Shown one piece after another: positions 8,928 to 45,193 of a stretch of DNA of 64,000 bases. The translations under genes were made by a program, and so were the position numbers. The stretch comes from an uncultured Candidatus Saccharibacteria bacterium (lineage in GTDB: Bacteria > Patescibacteriota > UBA1384 > GWA2-35-9 > CAYZGQ01): NCBI GenBank assembly GCA_964478135.1, contig CAYZGQ010000001.1, forward strand, positions 3,365 through 67,364. The letters run 5' to 3'. The notes below the pieces were generated by a model that did no database searches, had not been told where the DNA came from, and saw nothing but the letters and a program-made list of their open reading frames with translations. Each line of letters opens with the position of its first letter. Position 1 is the stretch's first letter.

Positions 8928-10043
8928 ATGGCTGGAATTATCTCAACTAAAAAAGCTAAAAAGCCGAAAGTCCTGGTTGCTCTTTCTGGGGGGGTTGATA
9001 GCGCCGTAGCCGCGGCTCTTCTGATTAAGCAAGATTATCAAGTCGAGGCCGCTTTTATGAAGAACTATACCCATCCGATTAAGACCCGGGTTGGATTGGC
9101 TTGCCCGTGGCAGGACGATTTGGCCTGCGCCCGCGAGGTGGCAAAACAGCTTGGTATTCGCCTCCATATTTTTAATTTTGAACTGGCGTACTATGAGAAA
9201 GTAGTCAGAAATTTTTTTAATGAGTACGCGGCCGGCAATACTCCTAACCCAGATGCTTTGTGTAACCGAGAAATAAAGTTTGGGCTTTTTTTAAAGCAAG
9301 CCCGCCGATTAGATTTTCAAAAAGTAGCGACCGGTCATTACGCTCAAGTCAAAACAAAAGTTTCTGATCCAACCCAAACGAGATTTTTAAGAGGGGTTGA
9401 TCTGAATAAAGATCAATCTTATTTTATGGCTTTAGTCAGACCGGATCAGCTTGAGCGGGTTATACTGCCAATTGGCGCTATGATTAAGCCGCGAGTCCGT
9501 CAGTTAGCGAGAGAGTTTGGCCTACCCAACGCCAACCGCAAGGACAGTCAGGGCATTTGTTTTATTGGTCCGGTTAAAGTCAATCAATTCCTTCGATCTT
9601 ATTTACCGGTCAAAAAAGGCCAAGTTATGACAACTGATAATCAGGTTGTGGGTCAACACGACGGGGCTTGGTTTTACACGATCGGTCAGCGTCACGGTCT
9701 CGGTCTTGGGGCTGACTTGCCTTACTATGTTGTTGGAAAGTCTGTCAAAAATAACACCCTGACTGTTAGTCTTGGTCCGGAAGATAGCGCCCTGTATTCA
9801 AGAGAGTTTCGGGTCAGATCATTGAACATAATCGCCAGAGCCAGCTTTGATCGAGGTTCGATATCTTGTCAAGTTCAAACCCGGTATCGTCAGCAACCGA
9901 TCGCCGGAACAGTCTTCCCTCAAGGCGCAAAGCAGGCCAAGGTAATTCTTAAAGAGCCGATTCGAGCCGTGACTCCAGGACAAGTAGCGGTATTTTACAC
10001 TGATAACGAGGTTTTGGCCGGAGGGACTATCGTGCTAAAATGA
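8928..10043 (+). CDS. mnmA: tRNA 2-thiouridine(34) synthase MnmA
   Basis: PP-loop VALSGGVDSAVAAALL, CNREIKF, KDQSYFM and DSQGICFIG. Confidence 0.9.
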   Translation: MAGIISTKKAKKPKVLVALSGGVDSAVAAALLIKQDYQVEAAFMKNYTHPIKTRVGLACPWQDDLACAREVAKQLGIRLHIFNFELAYYEKVVRNFFNEYAAGNTPNPDALCNREIKFGLFLKQARRLDFQKVATGHYAQVKTKVSDPTQTRFLRGVDLNKDQSYFMALVRPDQLERVILPIGAMIKPRVRQLAREFGLPNANRKDSQGICFIGPVKVNQFLRSYLPVKKGQVMTTDNQVVGQHDGAWFYTIGQRHGLGLGADLPYYVVGKSVKNNTLTVSLGPEDSALYSREFRVRSLNIIARASFDRGSISCQVQTRYRQQPIAGTVFPQGAKQAKVILKEPIRAVTPGQVAVFYTDNEVLAGGTIVLK

Positions 10044-11251
10044 AAACATCAAGGTTACTAATACTTATGATTCGTTTTAAAAGTCCTATTCTCGGGATTA
10101 TGATATTGGCTTTAGGTTGGTTGGGCGGATTTTTGCATGGCCACAGAAATCTTGTCTTTGAGCAATCGATTAAACCAACGATTGTTAACACAACTCTTCG
10201 AGAGCCAGATAAAGTTGATTTTTCACTCTTCTGGGACGCCTATAACGAAATTGCCCGAAAAGCGGTTGTTGAGCTGAATCCCAAACAGGCTCTTTATGGT
10301 TCAATTAGTGGTCTAGTCGGCACTTTAAAAGATCCTTTTTCTGTTTTTTTAAACCCCGATCAGTCCCGCCAATTTATAGATGATCTGGCGGGACAGTTCG
10401 ATGGGATCGGGGCCGAACTAGCCCTTAAGGATAATCAATTGATCGTGGTTGCCCCCCTGGAAGGTTCGCCAGCTCAAAAATCGGGCATCAAGGCCAAAGA
10501 TGTCATTGTCAAGATTGACGGGGTTGAGACTTCAACTCTCTCTTTCGGAGAGGCGATCGGCAAAATTAGAGGAGCAAAACGGAGCGTTGTAAAATTAACG
10601 ATTGCCAGGCAAGGCCAAGAGACCTTAATTGAATCGCCAGTCACCCGTGATACAATTCGGGTTAAGAGTGTTACGTCCCAAACCCGGGATCAAATCCTTG
10701 TGATTAAAGTCAGTCAATTTGGTCAAGACACATTAGGACTGGTTAAGTCATTGGCCAGCCAGGCCAAACGAGATCAGCCAAAAGGTATCGTCCTTGATTT
10801 AAGAAACAACCCAGGCGGTTTTCTGGATTCGGCGATTGATATTTCATCCCTTTTTTTAGATGGAGGAACGGTGGTTTTTGAGCAAGACAAGACTGGTCAA
10901 ACTAAGGAGTTTCAAACCACGCTTGAGCCGATGTTCGATCAACTGCCTATGGTGGTTATCATTAATGCCGGTTCTGCTTCAGCCAGCGAGATTGTCGCAG
11001 GAGCGCTTCAAGATAGGGGACGGTCTAAAATTGTGGGCGAACAATCTTTTGGCAAGGGTTCTGTTCAGGATTTGACCAAGCTTAGAGATGGTTCAACTTT
11101 GCGGATTACAACCGCAAGATGGTTAACACCTAACAAACGTCAGATTAACAGTCAAGGTATTCAACCCGACGAAAAGGTCCAAGATGATTCGGCGACCGAG
11201 GCTGACGAACAGCTTAACCGGGCCATAGAACTTTTATCAGTTAATAACTAA
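10040..11251 (+). CDS. ctpA: S41 carboxy-terminal processing peptidase with PDZ domain
   Basis: N-terminal TM helix, a PDZ domain (GSPAQKSGIKAKDVIVKIDG), the DLRNNPGG motif and the catalytic-Ser region NAGSASASEIVAGALQD. Confidence 0.85.
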   Translation: MKTSRLLILMIRFKSPILGIMILALGWLGGFLHGHRNLVFEQSIKPTIVNTTLREPDKVDFSLFWDAYNEIARKAVVELNPKQALYGSISGLVGTLKDPFSVFLNPDQSRQFIDDLAGQFDGIGAELALKDNQLIVVAPLEGSPAQKSGIKAKDVIVKIDGVETSTLSFGEAIGKIRGAKRSVVKLTIARQGQETLIESPVTRDTIRVKSVTSQTRDQILVIKVSQFGQDTLGLVKSLASQAKRDQPKGIVLDLRNNPGGFLDSAIDISSLFLDGGTVVFEQDKTGQTKEFQTTLEPMFDQLPMVVIINAGSASASEIVAGALQDRGRSKIVGEQSFGKGSVQDLTKLRDGSTLRITTARWLTPNKRQINSQGIQPDEKVQDDSATEADEQLNRAIELLSVNN

Positions 11252-27445: not shown

Positions 27446-30400
27446 TTGATCCCGCTGGCACAAGCAGGCCAGCTTTTTGGCTATTCAGCCGGTCATATGA
27501 ACTATTTAGCCCGGTCAGGGAAAATAATCGCTTTGAAACTCGGGGGTCAGTGGTACACGACTCGGGCGGCTGTTTCAGCCTACCAGGCCGGTCAACCCCA
27601 ACCGGAAAACCCGACCGGATTTATGTCTTTAGCCCAAGCGGCCAAGCAGTATGGCTATAGCGCCGGACATCTCAACCTTTTAGCCCGAGAAGGTAAGCTT
27701 GAAGCGGTGAAACTTGGGCGAAACTGGTACACGACCGAGCGCGCTATCGACCAGTACCGACAAGGCGTGCGTGAGATAGAATTAGTGCCAGATAGTCCTG
27801 ACCCGGCGCTCCAGATATCCCAGCCAGAAAATATTAATGTTAAAGTCAGGCCAGTAGCCAGTTACCAGGGATTTGGCATAACCGAAACCGATGATGACGC
27901 GCCAGGTCCGACCGGGGGATTTAGGCTCAAGTCAGTTATGGTCAGCCGTGGTTTTAAGCTCGGGTTGATCACACTTATAGTGTCTGGGCTGGCTTTTGGA
28001 CTGGGACGACTGGTTCAAGGCTGGCGCACGGGTGAGTTGAATGGACTGGGGCCATCTGGCATCGCGGCTTATTTGTTTGGTGGAGAGTTGGCCCAAGGAG
28101 ATCGTCTGGGCTCGGGTTTTCTCGGCAGTATCACACGAGAGCGAGCTCAATCCGATACGCCTGGGGTCAGACCCGAGGCGAGCCCTAGTCCGGACACTGT
28201 GGTCAATAACACGACAGTCAACAACTATAACCAGACCGTTAACAACGACAATCGTCAGGTGACAAACATCAGTACAACCAAAACTGCTAAAGATATTGTT
28301 GGAGAGTTATCCGACCCGCAGGTGAGTGATGACATCACGATTAACTCGAGCAAGGCTGGTTCGTTTAGTCCAAGCGGTAACACTACTGCCTTGACGGTCA
28401 AGCAAAGTTCAGCCAGTCCCTCGGAAACCCCGATCGTTAAGATTCAAAACGCGTCTGGGGCTAACCTTGTCACAGTTGATTTTGAAGGCAATTTAGGTCT
28501 GGCTGGTGGATCTAGATTGGAAATAGGCGGTCAGCAAATAGGAATTGCCAATCTAGCGGATGGATCTTCTATCGCGTCTCTTTCCGGTAGTCAAACTCTG
28601 ACTAATAAAACTTTGAGCGCGGGCGTTATCTACCAAGGATCGGCGATTAGCCCGAGCTACGGCGGGACCGGTCTAACATCAGCTCCCAGCAACGGCCAAC
28701 TCTTGATCGGCAATGGCTCGGGTTATACTCTGGCGGCTCTAACGGCTGGGACGGCAATTAATGTGACCAACGGTTCTGGTTCAATTACGATCGCTAATTC
28801 AGGTGTTACCTCGCTATCTGCCGGAACCGGCATCGCTGTTAGCGGTTCGTCGGGCGCGGTTACACTGACCAATTCGGGCGTGACCGCTCTGACCGGCACA
28901 ACCAACCAGGTCAGCCTGTCTGGTTCAACCGGTTCGATCACCATCTCAACGCCCCAAAACATTCATACCGGCGCCAGTCCAACCTTTTCAAGGCTCAATT
29001 TATCCGAGGCGTCCAATCAGTTGGTTCTTCAGTCAAATAGTGTTACAGGCAGTCTGACCTGGACGCCGGTCACATCCAATAAAACGATCACTCTGCCTAA
29101 TCTCACCGGAACCGCTTTTTTGATTGATGGAGGCCAGACGATCAGCTCTGCTGTCTGGAACGCTAGCGCTATCGGCCCGAGCTATGGCGGGACTGGTCAG
29201 ACGACCCTGGCCAAGGGTGATATTTTGTATGGCTCGGCGACTGATATTTGGTCGCGACTGGCTGTTGGCAGTATTGGTTATGTCCTCCAGGTCTCCCTAG
29301 ACGGCGTTCCAGAATGGGCGACTATTTCTTCCTTATCTGTTGGTAATGCTGACACGCTTGATTCGCTTGATTCAGCGGATTTTTTGCGCGCGACCGCCTC
29401 GGACACTTTTGAAGGAGTTAATTCAAGAACCCTGACCATTCAGTCTGATCTTTCCTCAGGCGCGAGGACGGTTGACCTTTTGACGATCAGCCAGGCGAAC
29501 GATCCAACCAATAACTTTACGACTGGCAATCTCCTAACAATTGCCCAACTCGACACCGGTTCGTCGGCCGATGCCTTAGAACTTAATCAGACTGGATCTG
29601 GTAAGGCTATTAACATTGTTTCAGGCGAGCTGGCGACAGCCGGCAACATCGTTCAAACCGGGGCAACCACGCTGTCAACCGGCACGGGCGCGGTCTCGCT
29701 CGGGGGTGACACGACCATCGCTACTGGAAAGAACTTGACTCTCGCGTCCGGGACAGGCACTTTTAGTCAGATTTTTAGTAATACGACCGGTACTGGAGCA
29801 AACTGGAATATCACTAACTCTGGTTCTTCTGGGACTAACACTGTTGGCGGGATAGGATTAGTGTTGGCTGGAACCGCCAACACGACTGGTTCGAATGTGA
29901 TTAATGCTATTAATTTTTCCAATGTCCCTCCGGCGACCAATAATTCTTATTACGCCCTGAATGTCGGAACCGGCTTTACTGATATTGTACGCTACAATGG
30001 CGCCCAGTTGATCTCTGGCTCGGGTGTCATTCAATCGGCCGCGCTTTCTGGTAACTACACTGGTGTTACTGGAGTTGGGATTTTATCCACCGGCACCTGG
30101 AATGCAGACACAATCATCTTTGCCAAGGGCGGCACGGGCTTAACAGCCACGCCCAGCAATGGCCAACTCTTGATCGGCAATGGCTCGGGTTACACTCTGG
30201 CCGGCTTAACCGGCACTACCAATCAGATCAATGTCGCTAGCGGGGCCGGTTCGATCACCCTCTCAACTCCCCAAAACATCCATACCGCCGCCAGTCCAAC
30301 CTTTGCCGGTTTGACTTTGTCCGACTTGACCCCTGGTTCTTTGGTCTTTGCCGGCGCCGGCGGGGTGATCAGCCAGGACAACGCCAAGTTCTTCTGGGAT

Positions 30401-32896
30401 CAGACAAATACTCGATTGGGTCTCGGGACAAGTTCGCCACTTTTTCCGATTCATGTTGTTAGATCGGGCGGTGGCGGGACGTTGAATTTTGACACTTACG
30501 CCGGTTCTGGACTGGGCAACAGCGCCATTCAAGGTCGGCGGGCGGCCGGAACTTTGGCCAGCCCGACAGCCACTCTGTCGGATATGACTCTGTTCGATCT
30601 GCTTGGGTCTGGCTACGACGGTTCAGCTTTCACCGGACAGATCGCTTCGATACGCATGCAAGCCAATCAGAATTTTAGCCCGACCAGTCAGGGCACCAGG
30701 ATTGTCTTTTTGACCACGGCCAATGATTCGACGACCGCGACTGAACGGCTGCGGATCAAACACAATGGCGATGTGGCAATCGGCAACGGCTCGACCGATC
30801 AGATATTATTTGGTTCGACCGGCTCGGCGGTCTTCAACGAACAGGGCAATGATGCCGATTTTCGGGTCGAGGGCGACACCGACGCCAATCTATTGTTCAC
30901 CGACGCTTCGGCCGATGTCTTGGGTGTCGGCACCGCGACCTTCGAAGCCAACACCCGCAAGATGGAGGTGAGATACACCGATACCGCGACCTCCGGAGGC
31001 ACCTTTTCAACGATTAGATTGCTTTCGGACATCAATGCTCCTTCTAACTCCACGGCATCCCATTTTGGTCTAGGAACGACTTTAAGAACCGCGAGCGGCA
31101 ACGCTTCCAACTACACCGACTCCACGACAGGTATTAAGGCGATGAACTTTGTCGTCCAGCACCGAGGCACAGGCACGGTTACTAGAATGACAGGCTTGGG
31201 CGGCAATGTCACCAACAGCTCAAGCGGTACGATTACGACTGCCGAGAGCATCGTGGCTGGGGTTGACCTGACCTCAACCGGTCCGATTACTACTTGGAAC
31301 GCCCTGCGGGTCTTCGCGCCCTCTATCACTGGCTCTGGGGTGCTGACTAACGCTCGCGGGCTTTACATCAGTAACATCACAGGGGCCTCCACGCAGAATC
31401 TAGCTATCCTGACAGAAGGGGGCGGAGTAGTCTTTAATGAAAACGGCACGGACAGCGATTTCCGGGTCGAGGGCGACACCGATGCCAATCTATTGTTCAC
31501 CGACGCTTCGGCTGATCGGGTTGGTATAGGGACAAACACCCCTTCGCTCAAACTTCACGTGGTGGACAACTCTTCAACTTCGGCTATTTTCCAGCGCAAC
31601 AGCACTGCCACCGGTTCGAGTGTTGGCTCAACGGTTTTTTTGGATAATTTGGACACCACGACCAACAATGGAGCTCGTTTGATTTTTAGAACCAACGATA
31701 CTGGCGGCGCAACCAGGCAAGCGGCTGGAATAGGCTCGCTCGTAACCGCCCGGGGTGCTAGCAGTGTGACTGGCGATCTGGTATTCCTGACCAACAACAA
31801 CTCAACCGGCGTTTCCGAGGTTGCTCGGTTAACCGGAGCGGGCGCGCTTGGCATTGGTGAGTCGCCGGCGGCCAATATGAAGCTTGATGTCGCTGGCCGG
31901 GTTCAGATTAATCTGGCCGGAACCCAAACCTCGGTTGCCTTGTGCGGTAGTCACCCGGCTGGCGGCGGGGCCTCGGTTTCCGATGTCGAGATTGTTGACT
32001 GCACCGGCACGCCGGCGGCTGACTATGCCGAGATCTATCCGGTTTCAAACGATGTTGAATACACTGATTTAGTGGCTATCGGACCGGATTCGGTTAAAAC
32101 CACCGATCAAAACTCGATTCAAAGGCTAGTCAAAGCTACGATCGCCAATCAAGCCAACACTTTAGGAGTCGTTGTTGACAACTACGGCGATTTCTCCTCG
32201 GTCGGTCACAACATTAAAGGTTCTGATAATCCCAAACCGGTCGCGCTTTCAGGCCGGGTGAGAGTGAAAGTTTCCGGCCAGTCGGGCGCGATAGCGCCCG
32301 GCGATTATCTGACCGCCTCGTCCAAACCCGGTCGGGCGATGAAGGCGACCTCAAGCGCCAAGATAGTTGGAGTGGCTTTGGGATCATTTAGCGGCGACGA
32401 GGGGACGGTAATGATGTTTGTCAGCAATTTCTGGTATAATCCGTCTTCGGGCGAGAGTATTCAGGGTACCCAAACTGCATCCTACCAGGCGCTCGAAGTT
32501 GCCGGCCTTTTGCGAACGAATCTTTTGGAGGTTGCCGGGCCAGCCGAGTTCAAAGGTAGTTTAGTTGTCTGGGGTGAAACAACCTTTAAGGCACCGGTTG
32601 TGGTTCAAAAGACGCTGACTGCTAAAGAAAAGATCGTGTCCAAAGGTGACCTTGAGCTCAAGGGCAATCTTGTTCTAAACCCCGACATTAAAGGGTCAGC
32701 CTTGCCAGTGACTAAGGGCGCGACCAGCCTTGAGGTCGTGTTTAGCAAGCCCCAAGCTGACACAAGCTACTTGGCTTTCGTCACGCCATCCCAGCCGATC
32801 GGTTTTGGCGTTACCAAACAATCTGACAAAATGATCGTTACCTTTGAGGCCGAGGCGCCGGAAGGATTAATCCTGGATTGGCTGATAGTCAGATGA
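27446..32896 (+). CDS. giant (1816 aa from TTG 27446) membrane protein: 2x HTH_17-like repeats, one TM helix, tail-fibre-like ectodomain
   Basis: Two N-terminal repeats (LAQAGQLFGYSAGHMNYLARSGKIIALKLGGQWYTT.AAV.AY and LAQAAKQYGYSAGHLNLLAREGKLEAVKLGRNWYTTERAIDQY). TM helix FKLGLITLIVSGLAFGLG. Ectodomain with repeated ..YGGTG(L/Q)T..PSNGQLLIGNGSGYTLA.. and NE.G.D.DFRVEGDTDANLLFTDASAD motifs. The frame is open from 27392, so the start is uncertain. Confidence 0.85.
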   Translation: MIPLAQAGQLFGYSAGHMNYLARSGKIIALKLGGQWYTTRAAVSAYQAGQPQPENPTGFMSLAQAAKQYGYSAGHLNLLAREGKLEAVKLGRNWYTTERAIDQYRQGVREIELVPDSPDPALQISQPENINVKVRPVASYQGFGITETDDDAPGPTGGFRLKSVMVSRGFKLGLITLIVSGLAFGLGRLVQGWRTGELNGLGPSGIAAYLFGGELAQGDRLGSGFLGSITRERAQSDTPGVRPEASPSPDTVVNNTTVNNYNQTVNNDNRQVTNISTTKTAKDIVGELSDPQVSDDITINSSKAGSFSPSGNTTALTVKQSSASPSETPIVKIQNASGANLVTVDFEGNLGLAGGSRLEIGGQQIGIANLADGSSIASLSGSQTLTNKTLSAGVIYQGSAISPSYGGTGLTSAPSNGQLLIGNGSGYTLAALTAGTAINVTNGSGSITIANSGVTSLSAGTGIAVSGSSGAVTLTNSGVTALTGTTNQVSLSGSTGSITISTPQNIHTGASPTFSRLNLSEASNQLVLQSNSVTGSLTWTPVTSNKTITLPNLTGTAFLIDGGQTISSAVWNASAIGPSYGGTGQTTLAKGDILYGSATDIWSRLAVGSIGYVLQVSLDGVPEWATISSLSVGNADTLDSLDSADFLRATASDTFEGVNSRTLTIQSDLSSGARTVDLLTISQANDPTNNFTTGNLLTIAQLDTGSSADALELNQTGSGKAINIVSGELATAGNIVQTGATTLSTGTGAVSLGGDTTIATGKNLTLASGTGTFSQIFSNTTGTGANWNITNSGSSGTNTVGGIGLVLAGTANTTGSNVINAINFSNVPPATNNSYYALNVGTGFTDIVRYNGAQLISGSGVIQSAALSGNYTGVTGVGILSTGTWNADTIIFAKGGTGLTATPSNGQLLIGNGSGYTLAGLTGTTNQINVASGAGSITLSTPQNIHTAASPTFAGLTLSDLTPGSLVFAGAGGVISQDNAKFFWDQTNTRLGLGTSSPLFPIHVVRSGGGGTLNFDTYAGSGLGNSAIQGRRAAGTLASPTATLSDMTLFDLLGSGYDGSAFTGQIASIRMQANQNFSPTSQGTRIVFLTTANDSTTATERLRIKHNGDVAIGNGSTDQILFGSTGSAVFNEQGNDADFRVEGDTDANLLFTDASADVLGVGTATFEANTRKMEVRYTDTATSGGTFSTIRLLSDINAPSNSTASHFGLGTTLRTASGNASNYTDSTTGIKAMNFVVQHRGTGTVTRMTGLGGNVTNSSSGTITTAESIVAGVDLTSTGPITTWNALRVFAPSITGSGVLTNARGLYISNITGASTQNLAILTEGGGVVFNENGTDSDFRVEGDTDANLLFTDASADRVGIGTNTPSLKLHVVDNSSTSAIFQRNSTATGSSVGSTVFLDNLDTTTNNGARLIFRTNDTGGATRQAAGIGSLVTARGASSVTGDLVFLTNNNSTGVSEVARLTGAGALGIGESPAANMKLDVAGRVQINLAGTQTSVALCGSHPAGGGASVSDVEIVDCTGTPAADYAEIYPVSNDVEYTDLVAIGPDSVKTTDQNSIQRLVKATIANQANTLGVVVDNYGDFSSVGHNIKGSDNPKPVALSGRVRVKVSGQSGAIAPGDYLTASSKPGRAMKATSSAKIVGVALGSFSGDEGTVMMFVSNFWYNPSSGESIQGTQTASYQALEVAGLLRTNLLEVAGPAEFKGSLVVWGETTFKAPVVVQKTLTAKEKIVSKGDLELKGNLVLNPDIKGSALPVTKGATSLEVVFSKPQADTSYLAFVTPSQPIGFGVTKQSDKMIVTFEAEAPEGLILDWLIVR
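28685..28987 (+). repeat. intragenic duplicated segment, copy 1 (PSNGQLLIGNGSGYTLA ... GSITISTPQNIHTGASPTF)
   Basis: 28685-28736 is near-identical to 30152-30203 (about 3 mismatches in 52 nt). 28931-28987 is near-identical to 30248-30304 (4 mismatches in 57 nt). Confidence 0.85.
30152..30304 (+). repeat. intragenic duplicated segment, copy 2
   Basis: See copy 1. In this copy the two conserved blocks are only 44 nt apart, against 194 nt in copy 1. Confidence 0.85.
30857..30916 (+). repeat. 60-nt intragenic direct repeat, copy 1 (DFRVEGDTDANLLFTDASAD)
   Basis: Matches 31457-31516 at 57 of 60 nt by eye. Confidence 0.85.
31457..31516 (+). repeat. 60-nt intragenic direct repeat, copy 2
   Basis: Matches 30857-30916 at 57 of 60 nt by eye. 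Confidence 0.85.
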
Positions 32897-33447: not shown

Positions 33448-34581
33448 ATGACTAAACGTCTCATCGTTGCGGGCGCTCTAATTTTGGCACTTTTGATTGG
33501 CGGAGCCGGCGGAGCGGCCTTTGTTTTGATCAGTGGTATTTCGAGTGTTCCGTCAGGCGCTATTGGGTCGGCCAAAAGTGATGCCAGCCGGGTTGAGAAA
33601 GTGGTTGTCGAGCAGTCATCGGGCGTGATAGACAGTGTTAAGAAAGTTTCTTCATCGGTTGTGGCGATCACTGTTAAGGGACAAGTGATTGATTTCTTTT
33701 TTGGACCAGTTTCTACCAGTTCGGCCGGCACTGGTTTTATCGTTACTGCCGATGGGTTAATTATCACTAATAAACATGTTGTTGCGGACGATAAGTCGGA
33801 ATACACGGTTTTCTTGCCAGACGGACGAAATTTTTCGGCCAAGGTGGTTGACCGCGACCCGCTCCAGGATTTGGCCTTTATTAAGATCGAGTCGAACGGT
33901 TTGCCGGTGGTTGAGTTGGGAGATTCTGACCGATTACAGGTAGGCGAGCAGGTGATTGCGATCGGCAACGCCTTGGGCGAGTTTCAAAATACAGTAACAG
34001 TTGGAGTGATTTCAGCCAAGAATCGTCAGATTACGGCATCAAACGGGGGTCAGGCCGAACCACTATCCGGCCTTTTACAAACCGATGCGGCCATCAACTC
34101 GGGCAACTCCGGCGGCCCGCTGGTTAATTTACGCGGTCAAGTGATCGGGATTAACACCGCTACCGCGACCAAGGGCGCCGCCGAAGGAATTGGCTTTGCC
34201 ATACCGACTAACACTGTTAAGCCTTCTTTAACCAGGATTACTAAACTCGGCCGAATTGCTCGGCCAATGCTTGGAGTTAGGTTTGCCAACATCACAAAAG
34301 AGTTGGCTGACCTGGAAAACTTGCCGGTTACTCAAGGCGCTTTGCTCGTGTCAGATGTCCAGGGTCGCCAACAAGCGGTTGTGGCCGGCGGACCGGCTGA
34401 CAAAGCCGGCCTTAAAAACGGTGACATTATTAGCCACATTAATGGTGATAAGATTGATCAGAGTAACTCTTTGCCCCAATTGATTGATCAGTATAACCCG
34501 GGGGACACGGTTGAGCTGACCGTGATCCGAGACCAAAAGACGCTCAAGATCAAAGTTCGACTCGAGGAGCTCAAGGTTTAG
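33448..34581 (+). CDS. htrA: HtrA/DegP-family serine protease with PDZ domain
   Basis: TM anchor. Catalytic triad contexts TNKHVV, DLAFIKI and GNSGGPLVN. C-terminal PDZ domain (GGPADKAGLKNGDIISHING). Confidence 0.9.
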   Translation: MTKRLIVAGALILALLIGGAGGAAFVLISGISSVPSGAIGSAKSDASRVEKVVVEQSSGVIDSVKKVSSSVVAITVKGQVIDFFFGPVSTSSAGTGFIVTADGLIITNKHVVADDKSEYTVFLPDGRNFSAKVVDRDPLQDLAFIKIESNGLPVVELGDSDRLQVGEQVIAIGNALGEFQNTVTVGVISAKNRQITASNGGQAEPLSGLLQTDAAINSGNSGGPLVNLRGQVIGINTATATKGAAEGIGFAIPTNTVKPSLTRITKLGRIARPMLGVRFANITKELADLENLPVTQGALLVSDVQGRQQAVVAGGPADKAGLKNGDIISHINGDKIDQSNSLPQLIDQYNPGDTVELTVIRDQKTLKIKVRLEELKV

Positions 34582-34597: not shown

Positions 34598-35275
34598 CTA
34601 GCTGGCTGGCGAGGGGCTTGGGCTAGCGGCTGATTGGCCAGTTTGACGGGCGAACACAATGTAACGTTTGACGAGCGTGCCCGGAGGCCAAGAGGTTTGG
34701 AGAGTTATGGTTTTGTCTTTCGGATCTTTGGGCGTTGGGTCTAGAACCGAGAAGTCGTCAGAGGCGACCACCTTCTTGCCAAAGACCTCGTATTGGTAGG
34801 CGACATTTTTGTAATAGACGATGAACCGATCGCCTTTGTCGAGTTTGTCGATACTTTTGAAGATTTCTTTAAGTTCTGGTTTACCCGGGAAGTTTTTAAA
34901 GTAGCTCGAGTGACCGAAGATGTACATATTTCCCAGTTGGTCCGGTTTCTGGCTACCTTTTAGATGTGCGACACCGAGCTGGGAGGTGATTTTTTGATAG
35001 ACCGGTTCGTTAGCCCCGTCAACATCCGCGATAATTGGAACCCGGATGCTGATTTTTTCGATCTCAAGACCAAATTCTTTGATCTCGACTGGTTCTGGCA
35101 GGGAACTTTGATTAAGCCCTGAAGGAGAGGCAGAGGGTTGAACGATTGATACGTTCAAGCCTGACTTTACCAAAGCAAGCGTTCCGGCAACAACCATAGC
35201 GCTTGCTAGTCCAATACCAAGAATAACTAGCTTTTTTTGAGTAGTCACTTGTGGCAAGACAGATTGTGGGTTCAC
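34598..35275 (-). CDS. sortase-family protein with Ser at the catalytic Cys position (no Cys in the protein)
   Basis: N-terminal TM anchor. The His loop NMYIFGHSSY, KGDRFIVYY..VAYQYEV, and ITLQTSWPPGT..KRYIVFARQ align with sortase TLxTC...R. The nucleophile codon is TCT (plus-strand aga 34691-34693). The start overlaps the stop of the upstream LPKTG gene by 4 nt. Confidence 0.8.
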   Translation of the reverse strand: MNPQSVLPQVTTQKKLVILGIGLASAMVVAGTLALVKSGLNVSIVQPSASPSGLNQSSLPEPVEIKEFGLEIEKISIRVPIIADVDGANEPVYQKITSQLGVAHLKGSQKPDQLGNMYIFGHSSYFKNFPGKPELKEIFKSIDKLDKGDRFIVYYKNVAYQYEVFGKKVVASDDFSVLDPTPKDPKDKTITLQTSWPPGTLVKRYIVFARQTGQSAASPSPSPAS

Positions 35276-38200
35276 GCGAGCCGGCGTCGAAGGGTTACCG
35301 CGACCGATCCAGCGGCAAGAGCGGCCAGTCCGATCAAGGCCAGTAGGTTGAGCGCGAGCGTGTTGGCCCCGGTTTTCGGCAGCTCAACAACCTGCGCCGA
35401 AACCTGATCGGTGTTAATTGACTCGTTGCCAGTTGTATCGAGGGAGCGCAGGGTGTAGTAGTATGTCCCTTTGGCGGTCAGGCTGTCATTATAACTCGTG
35501 TCTGCCTTGACGGTCGTCTTAATTTTATCGCCTAGCTTTCCAGATTCACTCGAGCGGTAAATGTTAATCTTGTCAAAGTCAGAGTCGGTTGGATTTTTCC
35601 AAGTTAAACTGATCTTACCAGTGCCGGCAGTCGCTTTGACTTCGCTTGGAGCGGCCGGCGGGGCGCTGTCAGCGTTGGCCGCCAGGCCAAAGACGGTTAA
35701 GTGGGAAACCAAACAACTAACTTCGTTTTTAGTGGTGTCAACGGTGCAGTTTTCCTTAGACAGTGAACCATCGGTCTCGTTGAATGAGACGATCTGGATA
35801 TCAGCTTCTTTGACCCCGGCCGGAATATCGGATTCTTTATAGGGGAAGGTGACGGTCAAGGGACTGTTGGGAGAAGTAATGTTAGAACCATTAGAGTCGA
35901 TCGCCGTGATATTATAAGCCTTTCCAAAGACAGAGGCACCTTCTTGGGCAGGCATTTCTGCTGTGGCGCCAACATTAAGCGTGACATTAGCGTCATCATT
36001 GTTTTTATCGAGTGCATCTGCGGGCACTTGGATGTTCATACCATCGCTTAAGGAGATTGCCGTAGCCGAACCCGAATTGCCAGTTCTTGAAGCGTCAGCT
36101 GGCAAAACGTTGCTTTGGGTAGTCAAACTAAAATCTTGGGTGAGATTGGTCGTTTGACCCTTGGTGTTAACCAGTTTTTCACCTGGTAGGATTATGACAT
36201 CTTTTTGGTTATCAGCATCTTTGGCGACATCAAGGTGCCAGACAGTATCTTTGGTGGCATTCATTGAGTATTTGCCATTGGAATCAGTCCGGACTTGGTT
36301 GACAGCGCCGTCGTCGGAATAGGCGCTGACAAGGGCATTGTTGACTGTTTGAGCGCTGGAATCATTAACTGTGCCTTCAAACTTAAAGTCGGCTTTGCGT
36401 AACTTAAAGTCAACCCCAGTTTTAGTTTCTTGATTGCCCACGCTAACGATTTGTTCAGCCGGTGGTAGCCAGCCATTTTTATTCAGCACTTCGGGCGCCA
36501 TAAAAACTCGGATGTTTTGGGTTTCACTGGAAGTGACATCGATTGAGTAGCTACCATTCGTATCAGTTTGGCCACTGAATTCGAAGAAGTCAGGCACAGG
36601 ACCTTTAGTTGCGTTGCGGTTATCGTCGTCTAGGCCGTTGTCCACTTTAACTTTCGCTCCCACGACCGCGTTACCATCGGGATCGGTGACTTTACCTTGG
36701 ATTTTGCTGTCAAGGGCTTTGAGTGTTACTTTAACCTCTGCCGTTTGGCCGGCCGTCAGGCTGACTTTGTCTTTGGGGGGTACCATGGCAAAGCCTGAAC
36801 CTGGTTCGATAAAGACACCGACACGGTAGGGGCTTTGCCCGGCAACAACACTAATGTTGTTAACAGAGGCGGCTCCGCCATGACCGGCGAAATCACCCAT
36901 GACATTGACACCTTTGTCAGAAATAGCAAAGGCGTGGGCAAAGACGCCGGAAATGGCACTGCCGTCAGATTTCACTAACTTAACGGCAATGTTAGCATCG
37001 GTAGGAACCAGCTTGATATCAATTGATTTGACCTCGTTTTTAGCAAGTTTGACCTTGCTAAATCCTTCGGGCATAAAGCCGTTCATTGGCATCATTGGGT
37101 TTAATGTGTACTCATTGTCACCGGGAACTTTGATATTAGCGCTCCCACGCTGGATTGGTTTACCCAGAAAGCCGATCGTATCACTATTAACTTCCATAAA
37201 GCCAAAGCTGTCAGAGACGACAGCTTTGGTGTCAGAACGGGTAATCCTGGCCTTGATGGTGGCATCGGCGTTAAGTGCCTCGAAGGTAGCTGTTCCACCG
37301 GCTTCAACGAACTGTGGCCCGCCTTTGATCACCTTGGAACTGCCAGCCTGTTGCTCTTGATCCTTTTGACCACCTTCAGGTCCAAAGTTCTCTGACATCA
37401 CCATCACGCCGTATTTGCCCGTGCCGACCACAGGGATCGTGCCGGTTGCTTCGGTCCCAGTCAGCTTAAGAATAGTAAAGCCGAATTCACCGCCTCCACC
37501 GACGCCCATCTTAAAGACATTGGCATTCATGTCGGCGGAGCCGTTTTTAACCACGACTTTGATTGCCTTTTCTTTTTTTACCAGAGTCAGGATACCGAGG
37601 TTTTTGGTTTCGCCGGCTTTAACCGCGATTGGCTCAATGACAGGCGCTGCGAACTGGGCGGCGTTGGGATTTTGGAAGTTCGGTGGCGAAAAGATGTCGA
37701 AATTATAGCTTTTTCCTCCGGCTACTTTCACGTTGAAGTTGACCGAGGAGGCACCCGGGGTAATCTGGAGGGGCGCGCCAAAGCCAAAGTCATTACCGGC
37801 CCGGATACCAAGACCGGTGCCTTGAGCTAGGGCGGATCCATCAGGCGTGGTAATTGTACCGGTAACCGCGGCGTCGACTTTTACGAAGTTATTAATGTTA
37901 ACGGTGACTGTTTCCACTGAATCGTCGTCTTTAAAGCTAGCCTGAATTGGCGGACCGCTCATCACGAAACTGCCGGCCCCATCGCTCGGGGCATGGATAT
38001 TCCATCTACCACCCGAGAGTTTGACGCTGTAGTTGCCGCTCCCGTCGGTTTTAGTTTGGGCAAAACCACCCGCTTCTTTAAAGAAGTTTAAGCTAGTAGT
38101 GATTACAGCTTCACCGGTCGCGGTGGTTGCTTTACCGGTTAAAGTTTTGGTCGCAGATTTAAATTTAATGGTTTTGCCAGTCAATTGGCTGCCGGTGTAG

Positions 38201-38577
38201 GTACCAAGATCTGTGAACGGGGGAGAGATTAATCCAGTGGTTGAGCCGTCAAACGGTGGGAAAAGATCGGCCACGAGCTTGTCGCCGCTTTGGGTGTTAT
38301 TAGCGAAGTCTTGGATAGTTGCCAGGCCGTTAGCGTCTGAATTGCTAAATAAGGAATATTTAAAATCAATCGGATGGACGTTAACTCCGGCGTTTTTGAC
38401 CGGCGCGCCATCGGCATCCTGGATGGTAATTACAATAATGGTTTTAGCCGTGGGTGGTGGTTGGGCGAGTGAGGCGCCAGAGTAGGCGAGGACTAGGCCC
38501 GCGATAGTGAAGACGCTTGTAAGGCCGCGCCAGTACAGGCGGAAAGCACCCGCCTGGGTCGTTCCTGATTGTAACAT
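35272..38577 (-). CDS. LPKTG-anchored giant surface protein (about 1101 aa), CarboxypepD_reg/Ig-like repeats plus C-terminal FN3
   Basis: I set the start at ATG 38577, preceded by AAAGGAGGG-N4; the ORF-track TTG 38598 lies upstream of that SD. Signal peptide ...LVLAYSGASLAQ. The C-terminus has an FN3 domain (ISLTWKNPTDSDFDKINIYRS) followed by LPKTG, a hydrophobic stretch and RRRLA. Confidence 0.85.
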   Translation of the reverse strand: MLQSGTTQAGAFRLYWRGLTSVFTIAGLVLAYSGASLAQPPPTAKTIIVITIQDADGAPVKNAGVNVHPIDFKYSLFSNSDANGLATIQDFANNTQSGDKLVADLFPPFDGSTTGLISPPFTDLGTYTGSQLTGKTIKFKSATKTLTGKATTATGEAVITTSLNFFKEAGGFAQTKTDGSGNYSVKLSGGRWNIHAPSDGAGSFVMSGPPIQASFKDDDSVETVTVNINNFVKVDAAVTGTITTPDGSALAQGTGLGIRAGNDFGFGAPLQITPGASSVNFNVKVAGGKSYNFDIFSPPNFQNPNAAQFAAPVIEPIAVKAGETKNLGILTLVKKEKAIKVVVKNGSADMNANVFKMGVGGGGEFGFTILKLTGTEATGTIPVVGTGKYGVMVMSENFGPEGGQKDQEQQAGSSKVIKGGPQFVEAGGTATFEALNADATIKARITRSDTKAVVSDSFGFMEVNSDTIGFLGKPIQRGSANIKVPGDNEYTLNPMMPMNGFMPEGFSKVKLAKNEVKSIDIKLVPTDANIAVKLVKSDGSAISGVFAHAFAISDKGVNVMGDFAGHGGAASVNNISVVAGQSPYRVGVFIEPGSGFAMVPPKDKVSLTAGQTAEVKVTLKALDSKIQGKVTDPDGNAVVGAKVKVDNGLDDDNRNATKGPVPDFFEFSGQTDTNGSYSIDVTSSETQNIRVFMAPEVLNKNGWLPPAEQIVSVGNQETKTGVDFKLRKADFKFEGTVNDSSAQTVNNALVSAYSDDGAVNQVRTDSNGKYSMNATKDTVWHLDVAKDADNQKDVIILPGEKLVNTKGQTTNLTQDFSLTTQSNVLPADASRTGNSGSATAISLSDGMNIQVPADALDKNNDDANVTLNVGATAEMPAQEGASVFGKAYNITAIDSNGSNITSPNSPLTVTFPYKESDIPAGVKEADIQIVSFNETDGSLSKENCTVDTTKNEVSCLVSHLTVFGLAANADSAPPAAPSEVKATAGTGKISLTWKNPTDSDFDKINIYRSSESGKLGDKIKTTVKADTSYNDSLTAKGTYYYTLRSLDTTGNESINTDQVSAQVVELPKTGANTLALNLLALIGLAALAAGSVAVTLRRRLA
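35368..35382 (-). other. LPKTG sortase-recognition motif codons
   Basis: The reverse complement of 35368-35382 reads ctg ccg aaa acc ggg (L P K T G). It is followed by 26 mostly hydrophobic residues and RRRLA. Confidence 0.85.
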
Positions 38578-38630
38578 TATCCCTCCTTTTGAGCTCAAGA
38601 TATATTTAATTAATTTGTAATTCTGTTTTT

Positions 38631-41503: not shown

Positions 41504-44500
41504 ATTAATTCAAGACAGAATGAGACTTGGGGGTTTAGTCTAGGAGAGTCTCTTGCGAAGCCCTTTATATGGCTAGTGCTGGGTGTTTTAGCCCTGCTCG
41601 GTCTGGTTTTAGTCAGTCCTTCGGCCGTCCAGGCCGGTGCAATCACCGGTTTGTCGGTTACAGTCAGTGACACGAGCGTCCAAGGGACGGCTGACTGGAC
41701 AATTGCCCTGACTCCAGAACAGTCAGTCCCAGCCAAGTCAAATGGCGGTCGGATTCACATGTGTGTCTATGGACCAGGCTCGATGAGTTTTCGGGATGGT
41801 TCTGTCGCGCTCGATTCGTCGGCTAGCACGAGCGGTTTGTCAATCTATGAACGGTTGGGAAATTGTATCACCCTTCAGTCAAACAGCGAGATCGCAGGAG
41901 GAACGGTTATCACTGCCAAACTGACAGGGGTTAGAAACCCAGACAAAGCCGGACGGTATGTTGGTCACATCTACAGCTCGACCTACGGCACCGCCCGAGA
42001 CGGCACCTCTCGCTGGGGCGGGCTCTACAATAGTTCTTTTACCATCGGCGATTTGACCAAGAACACTATTTCAGGTACGGTCACAGATGCCAATGGCGCA
42101 CCGGTCCGGTTTGCCTCCGTCTCTGTTTGGGGTAGCGGCGGCGGCGCTTGGGGCTACAGCTACACCGATCAAAATGGCCAGTACGCGATCGGCAGTCTAA
42201 CCACTGGCTCCTACAACTTTAGCGTCTACGGTCCCTACAACGAAGACGGTATCTTTTATTTTGCGCCTGATGTTTCGAGTATTTCAATTTCCGATACTTC
42301 GGCCACGACCAAAAACGCCAGCTTTTTAGCGACTCCCAAAACATTGCAAATTAAGGTTGAGGACGGCTCTGGTACAGCCATAACCGATGCCTATGTCTCG
42401 ATCTGGTCCAGAAACGGGAATGGTTGGGCTCAAACCAAAAACAACACCAACGGAGTCTACAAGATTAATGTTCCGAAAAACCGGACTTTTGGGTTTAGCG
42501 TTTATCCCCAAAATTGGCCTTCAACCTGGCAGTCATGCGGCAGTTATAACGAAGAAGTTACGACCGCCAACACCGATACGGCCGAGACTGTCAGTAAGAC
42601 GTTTAAGGTTTCCTCGCTCAACGCCACGGTCAAAGGTAAGATTGAGCGGTCTGACGATAGCACGCCCAAGCGCTGGTCAGTGAGCGTGAGTTTCCAGTCA
42701 AGCGGAGGTTGCTGGGCTTCAGCCGACTTTCCCGACGACACTGGTAATTTCAGCGCTAAAGTTGTCAGTGGCGAGACTATCACCGCGACTGGTTGGGTTT
42801 CGAGTGATCTCAACGAATCATTCCCAACGGTCAGTAACTTTTCGGTCCAAGCCAACCAAGAGCACAACCTGGGCGTAATCAAACTTAAAAAGCGTGATAA
42901 AAAGCTCGCTGTGACGGTTGTGGACAAAAATGGCGATCCGGTTAACAAGGCCAACGTCTACGCTTGGAAAACTGGCGGTTCGTATGAATATGCCAACGGC
43001 ACAACTGGCTCCGATGGCAATGCGGAACTCTTTTTGAGTCCAGGCAGCTGGAATGTTTCGGCCGGGCCAGAGTACCGCTGGAATGGCTCAAACAACGAAT
43101 ATGACTATGTCTCCAACTGGAAGTCTCAATTGATCAGCTTTTCCGAGTCAGACACGACTAAAACGATCAAGTTTATCTTCCAAAAGGTTACCTCAACGAT
43201 TAATGTCACCGTGACCGATGAGGCTGGGAGCGTCCTTAACCTATCGGGTAGTTTGTCGGCCAACGATGGTTCGCAAGAATGGTCAAATATCTGGTCCCAG
43301 CTCAATAGTGGCAAAGGCAAGCTTAGGGTTCCCCGAGGGACCTGGAGTGTTAACGCCAGTATTTGGGATGAGACCTATAGCTCACCAAATCCGGTTGACA
43401 TCACGATCGGTGATAATGAGACCAAAGAGATCAAGCCCAAGGCCTTGATCAATGATTCGACCATTTCCGGCAAAATCTACACAGAAGATGAAGATGGTAA
43501 CCGGACCCTGCTTAAAAACACTTGGCTTAGCATCTATGCTAACAAAAAAAATTCCTACTCTTCTTGGCGGTCAGCCTCGGTCAACCAAGAAGAAGGAACC
43601 TATTCGATCAAAGTTTCCTCGGGTGACTGGAGGCTCGGTTACTGGTTTTATAACAACAATTATATGTCAGGATACGGGAACGAAGTTGATGTATCGGTTA
43701 AATCAGGTGAAACTAAGACCCAAGATATTATTCTGCGCAAAGCTAACTACACCATCTCGGTCAAGGCGCTCGATCCAGACGGCAAGGCGCTGATGGGGGC
43801 TTGGATCACGGCTGACACGCGCAATCCTAAAGAGCGGACCGAAGCTGGTACTTGGTACTCAACCGGTACCTCAACCAATAATCAGGGAGAGGGGACGATT
43901 CAAGTGTCAGCCAACACTTACTGGATTAGTGGTTCGATGTGGTCAGGTTATATCAGTCCAGAGCGCCAAGAGGTTAAGGTCAATAAAGACAATCCAACTG
44001 CCAGTGTCACTCTCCAGTTCGGTCGGTCTGATGCGACTATATCTGGCACAGTCAAGCTCGATGACAAAGGGACTAAGTCGTTTGTTAATGCGGTCAGCGA
44101 GAAAGGCCGCTATGCCGAGACTAATTCAAGTAACGAAGGCCATTACATCCTCAACGTCTCGAAAGACGACACTTGGGTCGTCAAGGCAGTTAAAAAGGAT
44201 GGCGCAACTTTGTATCGATCAGACAAGAATCGAGTTGATCTCACTGGTAAGACCACGGGCATAGTCAATCTCGATTTGGTAAAAGAAACAATCAAGTTGC
44301 CGGAGGGGACGACCAGCACCTTTAATGCCAGCCAGTCAACTACCGTTAAGATTAAAAATGGCAATGTTGACGAAGTGATCATCACTGTTCCGACTGGCAC
44401 CCTGTCGAGCGATAATGAACAGATAACTGTAACGGCCGATGTGACCGAAGAGGTCACCGACACTTCAACTAGCGAGCCTGTTTTCGACTACGGTTATGAC

Positions 44501-45193
44501 ATCAACGCCAACGGTAGCCAATCCGGCACAATCAGCCAGTTGAAGGATAACGTGACCGTGACCGTAAACTATTCGGCCAACGAGCAGGCGATCCAAGATG
44601 AGGGAACAGAAGAGGACCTAGTGGTAGCCCGTTTCAACAACGAGAAAGGTGAATGGGAGCAACTCCAAGGTTGCGCTACAAACAAGGATGACAACACTAT
44701 TACCTGTCAAAATAATCACTTCACCAAGTTTGCGGTTGTCGCTTCAACCGACATCACCCCACCTTCTGCTCCAGGTAGCCAGAAGGCGATTGCTTCGAAC
44801 GCTAAGATTTCTTTAAGCTGGAGCAAGCCAAGCCAGGCCGACTTTGCCGGGGTTAACATCTATCGGTCAACCGAGAGTGGCAAGCTGGGTGATAAGATTT
44901 ACGGCAAAAATACCTCCACCAGTCACGACGATACGGTTCTGATCAACGACACGGTCTATTACTATACCCTCAAGTCAGTTGACAAAGCCGGTAACGAGTC
45001 AACCGCATCCGATCAGCTCAAAGCCAAGCCTTCAGCAACCTCGCCGGAGTCATCGGACGGTTCAACCACTGCCACGCTCTCAATTCTGCCCAAGACTGGT
45101 CAACCAGCCTCGCCTTTGAATTGGTTGTTGGCGATTCTGACAGTGATCAGCCTGGCCGGGGTCAGGGCATCGAGGATTGTCCGGATTAAGTGA
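41504..45193 (+). CDS. LPKTG-anchored giant surface protein (1229 aa if ATT 41504 is the start; 1205 aa from GTG 41576)
   Basis: GGAGG 41495-41499, then N4, then in-frame ATT 41504. This start adds an n-region (MNSRQNETWGFSLGESLAKPFIW) in front of the hydrophobic core LVLGVLALLGLVLVSPSAVQA. The body has CarboxypepD_reg-like repeats (ISGTVTDANGAPVRFASVSVW...TDQNGQYAIGSLTTGSYNF). The C-terminus has an FN3 domain, then LPKTG 45086-45100, a hydrophobic stretch and RIVRIK. Confidence 0.8.
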   Translation: MNSRQNETWGFSLGESLAKPFIWLVLGVLALLGLVLVSPSAVQAGAITGLSVTVSDTSVQGTADWTIALTPEQSVPAKSNGGRIHMCVYGPGSMSFRDGSVALDSSASTSGLSIYERLGNCITLQSNSEIAGGTVITAKLTGVRNPDKAGRYVGHIYSSTYGTARDGTSRWGGLYNSSFTIGDLTKNTISGTVTDANGAPVRFASVSVWGSGGGAWGYSYTDQNGQYAIGSLTTGSYNFSVYGPYNEDGIFYFAPDVSSISISDTSATTKNASFLATPKTLQIKVEDGSGTAITDAYVSIWSRNGNGWAQTKNNTNGVYKINVPKNRTFGFSVYPQNWPSTWQSCGSYNEEVTTANTDTAETVSKTFKVSSLNATVKGKIERSDDSTPKRWSVSVSFQSSGGCWASADFPDDTGNFSAKVVSGETITATGWVSSDLNESFPTVSNFSVQANQEHNLGVIKLKKRDKKLAVTVVDKNGDPVNKANVYAWKTGGSYEYANGTTGSDGNAELFLSPGSWNVSAGPEYRWNGSNNEYDYVSNWKSQLISFSESDTTKTIKFIFQKVTSTINVTVTDEAGSVLNLSGSLSANDGSQEWSNIWSQLNSGKGKLRVPRGTWSVNASIWDETYSSPNPVDITIGDNETKEIKPKALINDSTISGKIYTEDEDGNRTLLKNTWLSIYANKKNSYSSWRSASVNQEEGTYSIKVSSGDWRLGYWFYNNNYMSGYGNEVDVSVKSGETKTQDIILRKANYTISVKALDPDGKALMGAWITADTRNPKERTEAGTWYSTGTSTNNQGEGTIQVSANTYWISGSMWSGYISPERQEVKVNKDNPTASVTLQFGRSDATISGTVKLDDKGTKSFVNAVSEKGRYAETNSSNEGHYILNVSKDDTWVVKAVKKDGATLYRSDKNRVDLTGKTTGIVNLDLVKETIKLPEGTTSTFNASQSTTVKIKNGNVDEVIITVPTGTLSSDNEQITVTADVTEEVTDTSTSEPVFDYGYDINANGSQSGTISQLKDNVTVTVNYSANEQAIQDEGTEEDLVVARFNNEKGEWEQLQGCATNKDDNTITCQNNHFTKFAVVASTDITPPSAPGSQKAIASNAKISLSWSKPSQADFAGVNIYRSTESGKLGDKIYGKNTSTSHDDTVLINDTVYYYTLKSVDKAGNESTASDQLKAKPSATSPESSDGSTTATLSILPKTGQPASPLNWLLAILTVISLAGVRASRIVRIK
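45086..45100 (+). other. LPKTG sortase-recognition motif codons
   Basis: ctg ccc aag act ggt, followed by QPASPLNWLLAILTVISLAGV and a basic tail. Confidence 0.85.

Follow-up and report, generated by a model that had tools for sequence, protein, structure and literature searches.

Candidate serine-nucleophile sortases encoded beside LPXTG surface proteins in Patescibacteria

In a 64-kb stretch of contig CAYZGQ010000001.1 from an uncultured Candidatus Saccharibacteria bacterium (hereafter the window, meaning this whole stretch), a minus-strand gene encodes a sortase homologue in which a serine, Ser195, takes the place of the catalytic cysteine, directly downstream of a gene for a large surface protein that ends in an LPKTG sorting signal. 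Judging from sequence comparison, this gene is probably a genuine, maintained and functional serine-nucleophile sortase that is dedicated to the adjacent LPKTG protein. The substitution had been noticed in an earlier sequence-only reading of the window; the present analysis goes beyond that reading in that the gene is not a one-off: it represents one of at least three independent origins from which Ser-type sortases have arisen repeatedly among Patescibacteria. On balance, we also lean towards the more general proposal that Patescibacteria possess serine-nucleophile sortases with a Tyr-Gln-Ser-His-Arg active site, which evolved convergently at least three times and anchor LPXTG proteins through an oxy-ester acyl-enzyme.

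The sequence-only reading assigned the window protein to the sortases along its length, and this assignment is borne out by both profile and structure comparison. The Pfam model PF04203 (Sortase) matches residues 70-211 with a score of 76.7 bits (cutoff 26.6), and the generic NCBIfam model TIGR01076 matches the protein with 42.5 bits (cutoff 39.35). None of the NCBIfam models for sortase classes A-F and GN comes near its cutoff (51.2 against 160 for class E and 46.8 against 165 for class D), the Ser-type proteins of the main family described below likewise score below the class cutoffs, and NCBIfam holds no model specific to Ser-type sortases. The AlphaFold2 model, based on 43 homologues, has a mean predicted local distance difference test (pLDDT) value of 79 and values above 90 for the greater part of the catalytic domain, and consists of a helix formed by residues 15-37 followed by a beta-barrel; in the Foldseek comparison with the PDB, the best 50 matches listed are all sortases, with a probability of 1.00 and a target-normalised TM-score of up to 0.78. 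By homology and by predicted fold, the window protein is a sortase. The predicted helix coincides with the N-terminal transmembrane anchor of the earlier reading, and this hydrophobic segment would hold the sortase domain outside the cell. Because the shorter NCBI gene call (P0001, 199 amino acids) would cut through the helix, we prefer the GTG start at 35273-35275, which shares four nucleotides (GTGA) with the TGA stop of the upstream open reading frame (ORF).

Pairwise and profile alignments alike place Ser195 on the catalytic Cys of sortases in the PDB (TLQTSwP in the window protein versus TLVTCTP, TLLTCYP and TLITCTP), and the corresponding column is Cys in 173 of the 185 homologues. The nucleophile codon is TCT, one base from TGT, and the entire protein is devoid of cysteine, both as originally read. 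The retention of the conserved His and Arg, also claimed at that stage, is upheld by the alignments with PDB sortases: His122 aligns to their GH and is invariant in 43 of 43 and in 262 of 262 aligned homologues, and Arg204, which is invariant or near-invariant among the aligned homologues, belongs to a KR pair that lies over their catalytic Arg. Compared with the mechanistic definition of a sortase as a cysteine transpeptidase (MEROPS C60), the window protein lacks the Cys and has the His and Arg, and the locus includes both the N-terminal anchor and a substrate with an LPXTG motif, a hydrophobic segment and a basic tail. We also considered whether the cysteine had moved to another site in the protein; this is ruled out, the number of cysteines being zero in the window protein and in 53 of the 80 Ser-type proteins.

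The single base that separates TCT from TGT is what would be expected of a sequencing or assembly error, or of a recent inactivating mutation in a decaying gene, and the sequence-only reading had raised both a base-call error and a decaying copy. Neither is compatible with the comparative data. The Logan assemblies of two other runs, ERR3478686 (12,970 bases) and ERR4904391 (3,617 bases), agree with the window over these lengths and are 100% identical to it across the sortase gene. Among 42 relatives drawn from a collection of 5.8 billion proteins, the search for orthologues with the same Ser, which had been proposed together with the original observation, recovered P0002 (61% identity) and P0004 (48% identity), both with Ser at the nucleophile position and without Cys; the Ser codon of P0002 is TCC, unlike the TCT of the window, and its gene follows that of a 1116-residue orthologue of the cargo ending in LPTTG, a transmembrane segment and RR. 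Ser is furthermore present at this position in 78 other genomes, and five codons (TCT, TCC, TCA, TCG and AGC) encode it in the Ser-type loci. The reading frame is unbroken, His and Arg as the remaining catalytic residues are invariant, as is the surrounding motif, and the ratio of nonsynonymous to synonymous substitution rates (dN/dS) of the catalytic domain is low, at 0.05-0.13 where dS is unsaturated. The identity in two runs together with the Ser in orthologues and in the 78 genomes rules out a base-call or assembly error, and the intact frame, the invariant His and Arg and the low dN/dS rule out a decaying pseudogene, so that we regard explanations of this kind as having a negligible probability.

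The distribution of Ser-type sortases was examined at the level of both proteins and genomes. An exhaustive phmmer search covered 1.84 billion cluster representatives, with the best 150 matches listed; in these matches combined with those of the first protein search, Ser also occupies the nucleophile column in the more distant proteins P0039, P0041, P0155 and P0175, all of which have the His and Arg intact. A scan of one genome per species (185,579 species) with the patterns [GT]NxY[IL][FV]GHSS and T[LI]QTS[WY]P[PVI][GN]T, derived from seven Ser forms, yielded 156 relatives, and among the best 80 of these 156, which were analysed, the nucleophile is Ser in 78 and Cys in 2. Given that the scan was aimed at Ser forms, this ratio is not a frequency and only sets a lower bound of 78 species. 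Thus, at least 78 species-level Patescibacteria genomes, including Doudnabacteria, Uhrbacteria, Yanofskybacteria, Kerfeldbacteria, Parcubacteria and many bins labelled Saccharibacteria, carry sortases with the motif T-L-Q-T-S-[WY]-P. In public records these proteins appear as 'hypothetical protein', 'Sortase', 'sortase' or 'LPXTG-site transpeptidase (sortase) family protein'.

Outside the clade of the window protein, His122, Gln193, Thr194, Ser195, Pro197 and Arg204 each show 100% conservation among the 80 Ser-type sequences, and Ala, Gly or Thr never replace the Ser within the Ser clades. One pair of loci (L030 and L035) differs by a dN of 0.018 and a dS of 0.24, and several other Ser-type pairs retain 75-92% protein identity despite saturated dS. 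By these measures of sequence divergence, the Ser-type sortases are under purifying selection.

Several variants were encountered in the course of this survey. In two loci (L080, ORF 9947-10570, and L086, ORF 9791-10417), Ala replaces the otherwise invariant Thr that precedes the nucleophile (LQASYP). Protein P0141 has Asn at the nucleophile position (LTLMTNWPP) and a lone Cys directly after the catalytic His (LFGHCE), and may have a relocated nucleophile or represent another kind of active-site variant. Patescibacteria-typical pairs of Ser-type sortase and cargo genes were also found in L020, L022, L032, L033, L040, L052, L066, L075 and L083; several such bins are labelled 'uncultured Gammaproteobacteria' or 'Acidobacteriaceae', and these labels are probably wrong or the bins contaminated.

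The Ser forms do not constitute a single family. In a neighbour-joining tree of 262 catalytic domains, constructed with the three columns of interest omitted, they are found as a clade of 76 together with a group of 3 (the main family), as the pair P0002/P0004, as the window protein alone and as P0155 alone. The window protein groups with P0002 and P0004 and with the Cys-type P0003 and P0044. Its identity to several Cys-type sequences is 46-59%, compared with 30-42% to the Ser forms of the main family. The signature of the main family (GHSSD, TSYP, Pro106, Gln180 and Ala201/Leu202) is absent from the window protein, which is Cys-type-like at these positions. Given that the clade of the window protein lacks this signature and is closer to Cys-type sequences, a separate, convergent origin follows, and a single monophyletic Ser family is ruled out. 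On the tree and the alignment, Ser arose at least three times, namely in the main family, in the clade of the window protein and in P0155.

Relative to their nearest Cys-type relatives, all three origins share exactly three changes: Phe to Tyr at position 118, four residues before the catalytic His, Met to Gln at position 193, two residues before the nucleophile, and Cys to Ser at position 195. The combinations at positions 118, 193 and 195 among the 262 sequences are predominantly Phe-Met-Cys (114) and Tyr-Gln-Ser (80), followed by Tyr-Gln-Cys (16), Phe-Gln-Cys (7) and Phe-Gln-Ser (3). Tyr118 is present in 80 of the 83 Ser forms, with Phe in most Cys forms, and Gln193 in all 83 Ser forms versus 24 of 178 Cys forms. 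The Cys-type protein P0003 (locus L006), which is 59% identical to the window protein, combines Tyr and Gln with Cys, the codon being TGC where the window has TCT, and its locus shares with the window the gene order S2, L31, release factor, large CarboxypepD_reg LPKTG protein and sortase. By its sequence, P0003 could plausibly be either an intermediate state or a revertant; the path from Phe-Met-Cys through Tyr-Gln-Cys to Tyr-Gln-Ser is likely, and a reversal in P0003 is equally parsimonious. The window copy is a young, independent Ser origin with a Cys-bearing sister as a natural control.

A further line of evidence is the association with cargo genes (Table 1). The four-nucleotide overlap between the sortase gene and the gene of a 1101-residue protein ending in LPKTG, a hydrophobic stretch and RRRLA, described in the sequence-only reading, is confirmed, with the cargo slightly longer when read from the TTG start; 26 mainly hydrophobic residues lie between LPKTG and RRRLA. 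The second LPKTG protein, which had been noted 6 kb away, is a true paralogue of the first (26% identity over the full length, E value 5e-63). The pair of cargo and sortase genes is also present in the orthologous loci L002 and L006. A Cys-bearing sortase, the search for which had been suggested as well, was not detected in the 64-kb window, where a tblastn search with 42 sortases matched the window gene alone. Across other genomes, in about 50 of the loci retrieved, a gene for a protein with a sorting motif, a hydrophobic segment and a basic tail is followed on its own strand, at a distance of less than 300 nucleotides, by the Ser-sortase gene; the motif of the paired cargo is LPRTG in 44 loci, LPVTG in 6, and otherwise LPTTG or LPKTG. 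Among the cargo proteins sampled, the domains are of the SpaA and SpaA_2 prealbumin-like, SdrD_B, Cna_B, DUF11 and InlB-B-repeat-like types, all of which commonly make up adhesins and pilins anchored by sortases.

Table 1. Features of the serine-type sortase locus and its candidate substrates in the window
Feature	Coordinates	Strand	Description
Ser-type sortase gene	34598..35275	-	225 amino acids, GTG start, TAG stop, no cysteine; from the ORF list and the sequence
N-terminal membrane anchor	35165..35233	-	residues 15-37, KKLVILGIGLASAMVVAGTLALVK; predicted helix in the AlphaFold2 model
Ser195 codon TCT	34691..34693	-	plus-strand aga; position of the catalytic Cys of TLxTC
His122 codon CAC	34910..34912	-	motif IFGHSS; conserved sortase histidine
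Arg204 codon CGT	34664..34666	-	conserved sortase arginine; aligns to the Arg of PDB sortases
Tyr118 codon TAC	34922..34924	-	four residues before His; co-varies with Ser
Gln193 codon CAA	34697..34699	-	two residues before Ser; co-varies with Ser
Co-transcribed cargo, surface protein	35272..38598	-	1108 amino acids from TTG start at 38598 (1101 from ATG at 38577); CarboxypepD_reg repeats
C-terminal sorting signal of the cargo	35272..35382	-	LPKTG at 35368-35382, hydrophobic stretch, RRRLA, stop
Paralogous surface protein, second likely substrate	41576..45193	+	1205 amino acids; LPKTG at 45086-45100, hydrophobic stretch, RIVRIK

Three loci depart from the usual arrangement. In L014 (7979-10459, plus strand; Yanofskybacteria CG10_big_fil_rev_8_21_14_0_10_46_23, PCXO01000010.1), cargo and Ser-type sortase form a single frame of 826 amino acids with the order LPRTG, transmembrane segment, QVRRK, transmembrane segment and sortase domain; this topology could permit a self-processing fusion of cargo and sortase, or else the frame could result from a lost stop codon or contain an unrecognised internal start. 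In L077, two tandem Ser-type sortase genes (at about 10349 and about 11717, plus strand) lie downstream of one LPRTG cargo gene. In L001 (1-9200; GCA_027341205.1, DAIENG010000002.1), the gene for P0039 has no adjacent cargo gene and instead neighbours a block of genes related to oxidative stress and iron-sulfur clusters (superoxide dismutase, AhpC/Redoxin, Fur and Suf), a context which might hint that the loss of the thiol is tied to oxidative conditions or might be a coincidence.

Other features of the window adjoin this locus. A gene for an HtrA-like serine protease with Trypsin_2 and PDZ domains (33448-34581, plus strand) converges on the sortase gene, with 16 nucleotides between the two stop codons, and L003 and L004, which are further assemblies of the same organism, show this arrangement too. 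Further away, a 1816-residue ORF (27446-32896, plus strand) starts with two copies of a helix-turn-helix segment (Pfam HTH_17), followed by a hydrophobic stretch and then about 1600 residues of low-complexity, repeat-rich sequence; it is odd to see a domain of the DNA-binding type in a giant protein that is apparently extracellular. No Rfam family reached its gathering score on either strand of the 64-kb window, and no tRNA, rRNA or riboswitch was detected there.

Several observations weigh against a catalytically competent serine sortase. In S. aureus sortase A, the engineered C184S variant loses activity dramatically (PMC4827206), so that a bare Cys-to-Ser swap appears insufficient alone, and the same variant is used as a cysteine-less scaffold (PMC5578623). 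The search for Cys-type sortases spans the window and flanks of 10 kb on either side of the Ser-type loci, and a working one may sit elsewhere in the genome. Gln193 and Tyr118 are also found in Cys-type sortases, in the 16 Tyr-Gln-Cys and 7 Phe-Gln-Cys sequences listed above for one or both positions, and the two residues could reflect substrate specificity instead of nucleophile activation.

The low activity of C184S and the possible presence of a distant Cys-type sortase also speak for the main rival, under which the window protein and its relatives are conserved, catalytically dead pseudo-sortases that bind the LPXTG signal of the neighbouring protein as a chaperone, retention factor, assembly partner or regulator, with the chemistry being done by a Cys-type sortase encoded elsewhere; selection on substrate-binding residues could explain both the low dN/dS and the conserved cargo pairing. 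A mere binder, however, would have no obvious need for an acid/base His or for a hydroxyl at the nucleophile position, and yet none of the 83 Ser forms, which have diverged to about 30-40% identity, departs from His, Ser and Arg at these positions, and the Ser has not given way to another small residue. The triple change of Tyr, Gln and Ser, seen three times, looks like re-engineering of an active site and not like inactivation, and a motif scan detected no Cys-type sortase within 10 kb on either side of the 78 Ser-type loci, its one additional sortase being the tandem Ser-type copy in L077. Pseudoenzymes are marked by loss of catalytic residues together with relaxed constraint; here, one nucleophile has been exchanged for another under the low dN/dS reported above. 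Given the strict retention of His and Arg, the Ser-specific retention and the convergent triple change, we consider a dead partner unlikely, if still the most serious of the alternatives. In the choice between the two, the convergent three-residue change and the conserved cargo pairing, both features of sequence, favour a serine enzyme.

Under the proposed serine-sortase mechanism, the membrane-anchored enzyme would recognise the LPKTG signal of the translationally coupled upstream protein; the paralogue 6 kb away would probably be recognised in the same manner. Ser195 would attack the Thr-Gly bond, with His122 as the general base/acid and Arg204 stabilising the transition state, and the acyl-enzyme would be an oxy-ester in place of the thioester; resolution by the amine of a cell-wall precursor would then leave the cargo covalently joined to the envelope. 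In known sortase structures, strand β4 ends with the His and the adjacent strand β7 with the nucleophile, and β8 carries the Arg; the residues that precede the His and the nucleophile by two and four positions on β4 and β7 are on the same face, forming the floor of the LPXTG-binding groove. Strands 115-120, 188-196 and 203-216 of the AlphaFold2 model fit this layout, so in the model Tyr118 and Gln193 should lie on the active-site face beside Ser195 and His122. These two residues may remodel the floor of the active site such that a hydroxyl nucleophile works, for instance through a hydrogen bond to the Ser or to the oxyanion. We infer catalytic activity, such roles for Tyr and Gln, an acceptor of this type, and transpeptidation in preference to hydrolysis.

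It is with respect to this preference that a second rival arises, namely that the protein is an active serine hydrolase which clips LPKTG and thereby releases or matures the surface protein, as a sheddase or a signal-removing peptidase, with no linkage to the wall. The evidence for a selected active site fits such an enzyme equally well. Aminolysis of an acyl-enzyme proceeds less readily from an oxy-ester than from a thioester, and the work on 'thiolsubtilisin/subtiligase', in which the Ser of subtilisin was changed to Cys, reportedly represents the reverse swap, favouring ligation. The serine acyl-enzymes of penicillin-binding proteins nevertheless do transpeptidate; Ser is therefore compatible with ligation. 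Moreover, the cargo keeps the full anchoring signal (motif, transmembrane segment and basic tail) that is typical of wall-anchored proteins, and the Cys-type orthologue P0003 has the same cargo arrangement, which suggests that the function is unchanged. Hydrolysis without anchoring thus appears improbable, more so than the dead partner, and anchoring of LPXTG proteins by a serine sortase remains the account that we favour.

We found no description of a natural Ser-sortase in the full-text literature searched, in which subscription journals are thinly covered, such that this absence is not proof; judging from its sequence, the Ser-type sortase appears to be a serine counterpart, so far undescribed, of a textbook cysteine enzyme. 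The reviews that we found define sortases as cysteine transpeptidases, and both their inhibitors and their uses in protein engineering rest on the thiol. If the proposed activity is real, the sortase scaffold supports serine chemistry and the sortase clan is a mixed Cys/Ser family; the evolutionary recipe for the switch would be Phe to Tyr and Met to Gln, then Cys to Ser, natural Tyr-Gln-Cys intermediates being extant. Thiol-independent ligases for 'sortagging', insensitive to oxidation and to thiol-reactive compounds, would then be conceivable. The finding also bears on the display of large adhesin-like proteins, with a presumed role in host attachment, by the little-studied and mostly uncultivated Patescibacteria, in which annotation pipelines name the Ser-type proteins 'sortase' or 'hypothetical protein' and leave the change of nucleophile unflagged.

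Canonical sortases (MEROPS C60, Pfam PF04203) are exemplified by S. aureus SrtA with its His120, Cys184 and Arg197. The window protein resembles them in fold and domain, in the N-terminal anchor, in the His and Arg, in the T-L-x-T-[nucleophile] motif and in having substrates with LPXTG, a transmembrane segment and a basic tail encoded next door; it differs in the Ser nucleophile and the complete lack of cysteine, the Ser forms having in every case Gln two residues before the nucleophile and, in nearly every case, Tyr at the fourth residue ahead of the His. In contrast to members of the established classes A-F and GN, it passes the cutoff of the generic TIGR01076 alone among the NCBIfam sortase models. 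With the Cys-type P0003 it shares 59% identity, the gene order and both accessory residues, the difference being TGC (Cys) instead of TCT (Ser). The representatives of the main Ser-type family (OGE76169.1, KKW00971.1, XOU94263.1 and MBI5654538.1) have the same Ser, Gln, Tyr, His and Arg and a dedicated upstream LPXTG cargo, whereas the window protein, at 30-42% identity, lacks the signature of that family. Engineered SrtA C184S carries the same substitution of the nucleophile, unlike the natural proteins, which combine it with two co-evolved changes and are under purifying selection. Beyond the sortases, transpeptidation in the cell envelope proceeds through acyl-enzymes formed either by Ser, in the DD-transpeptidases of the penicillin-binding protein group, or by Cys, in the LD-transpeptidases, and in the rhombosortase/GlyGly-CTERM system a serine protease acts as the C-terminal sorting enzyme. 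These three systems have unrelated folds and no sequence relationship to the window protein, and provide a functional analogy that makes serine chemistry in a sortase plausible.

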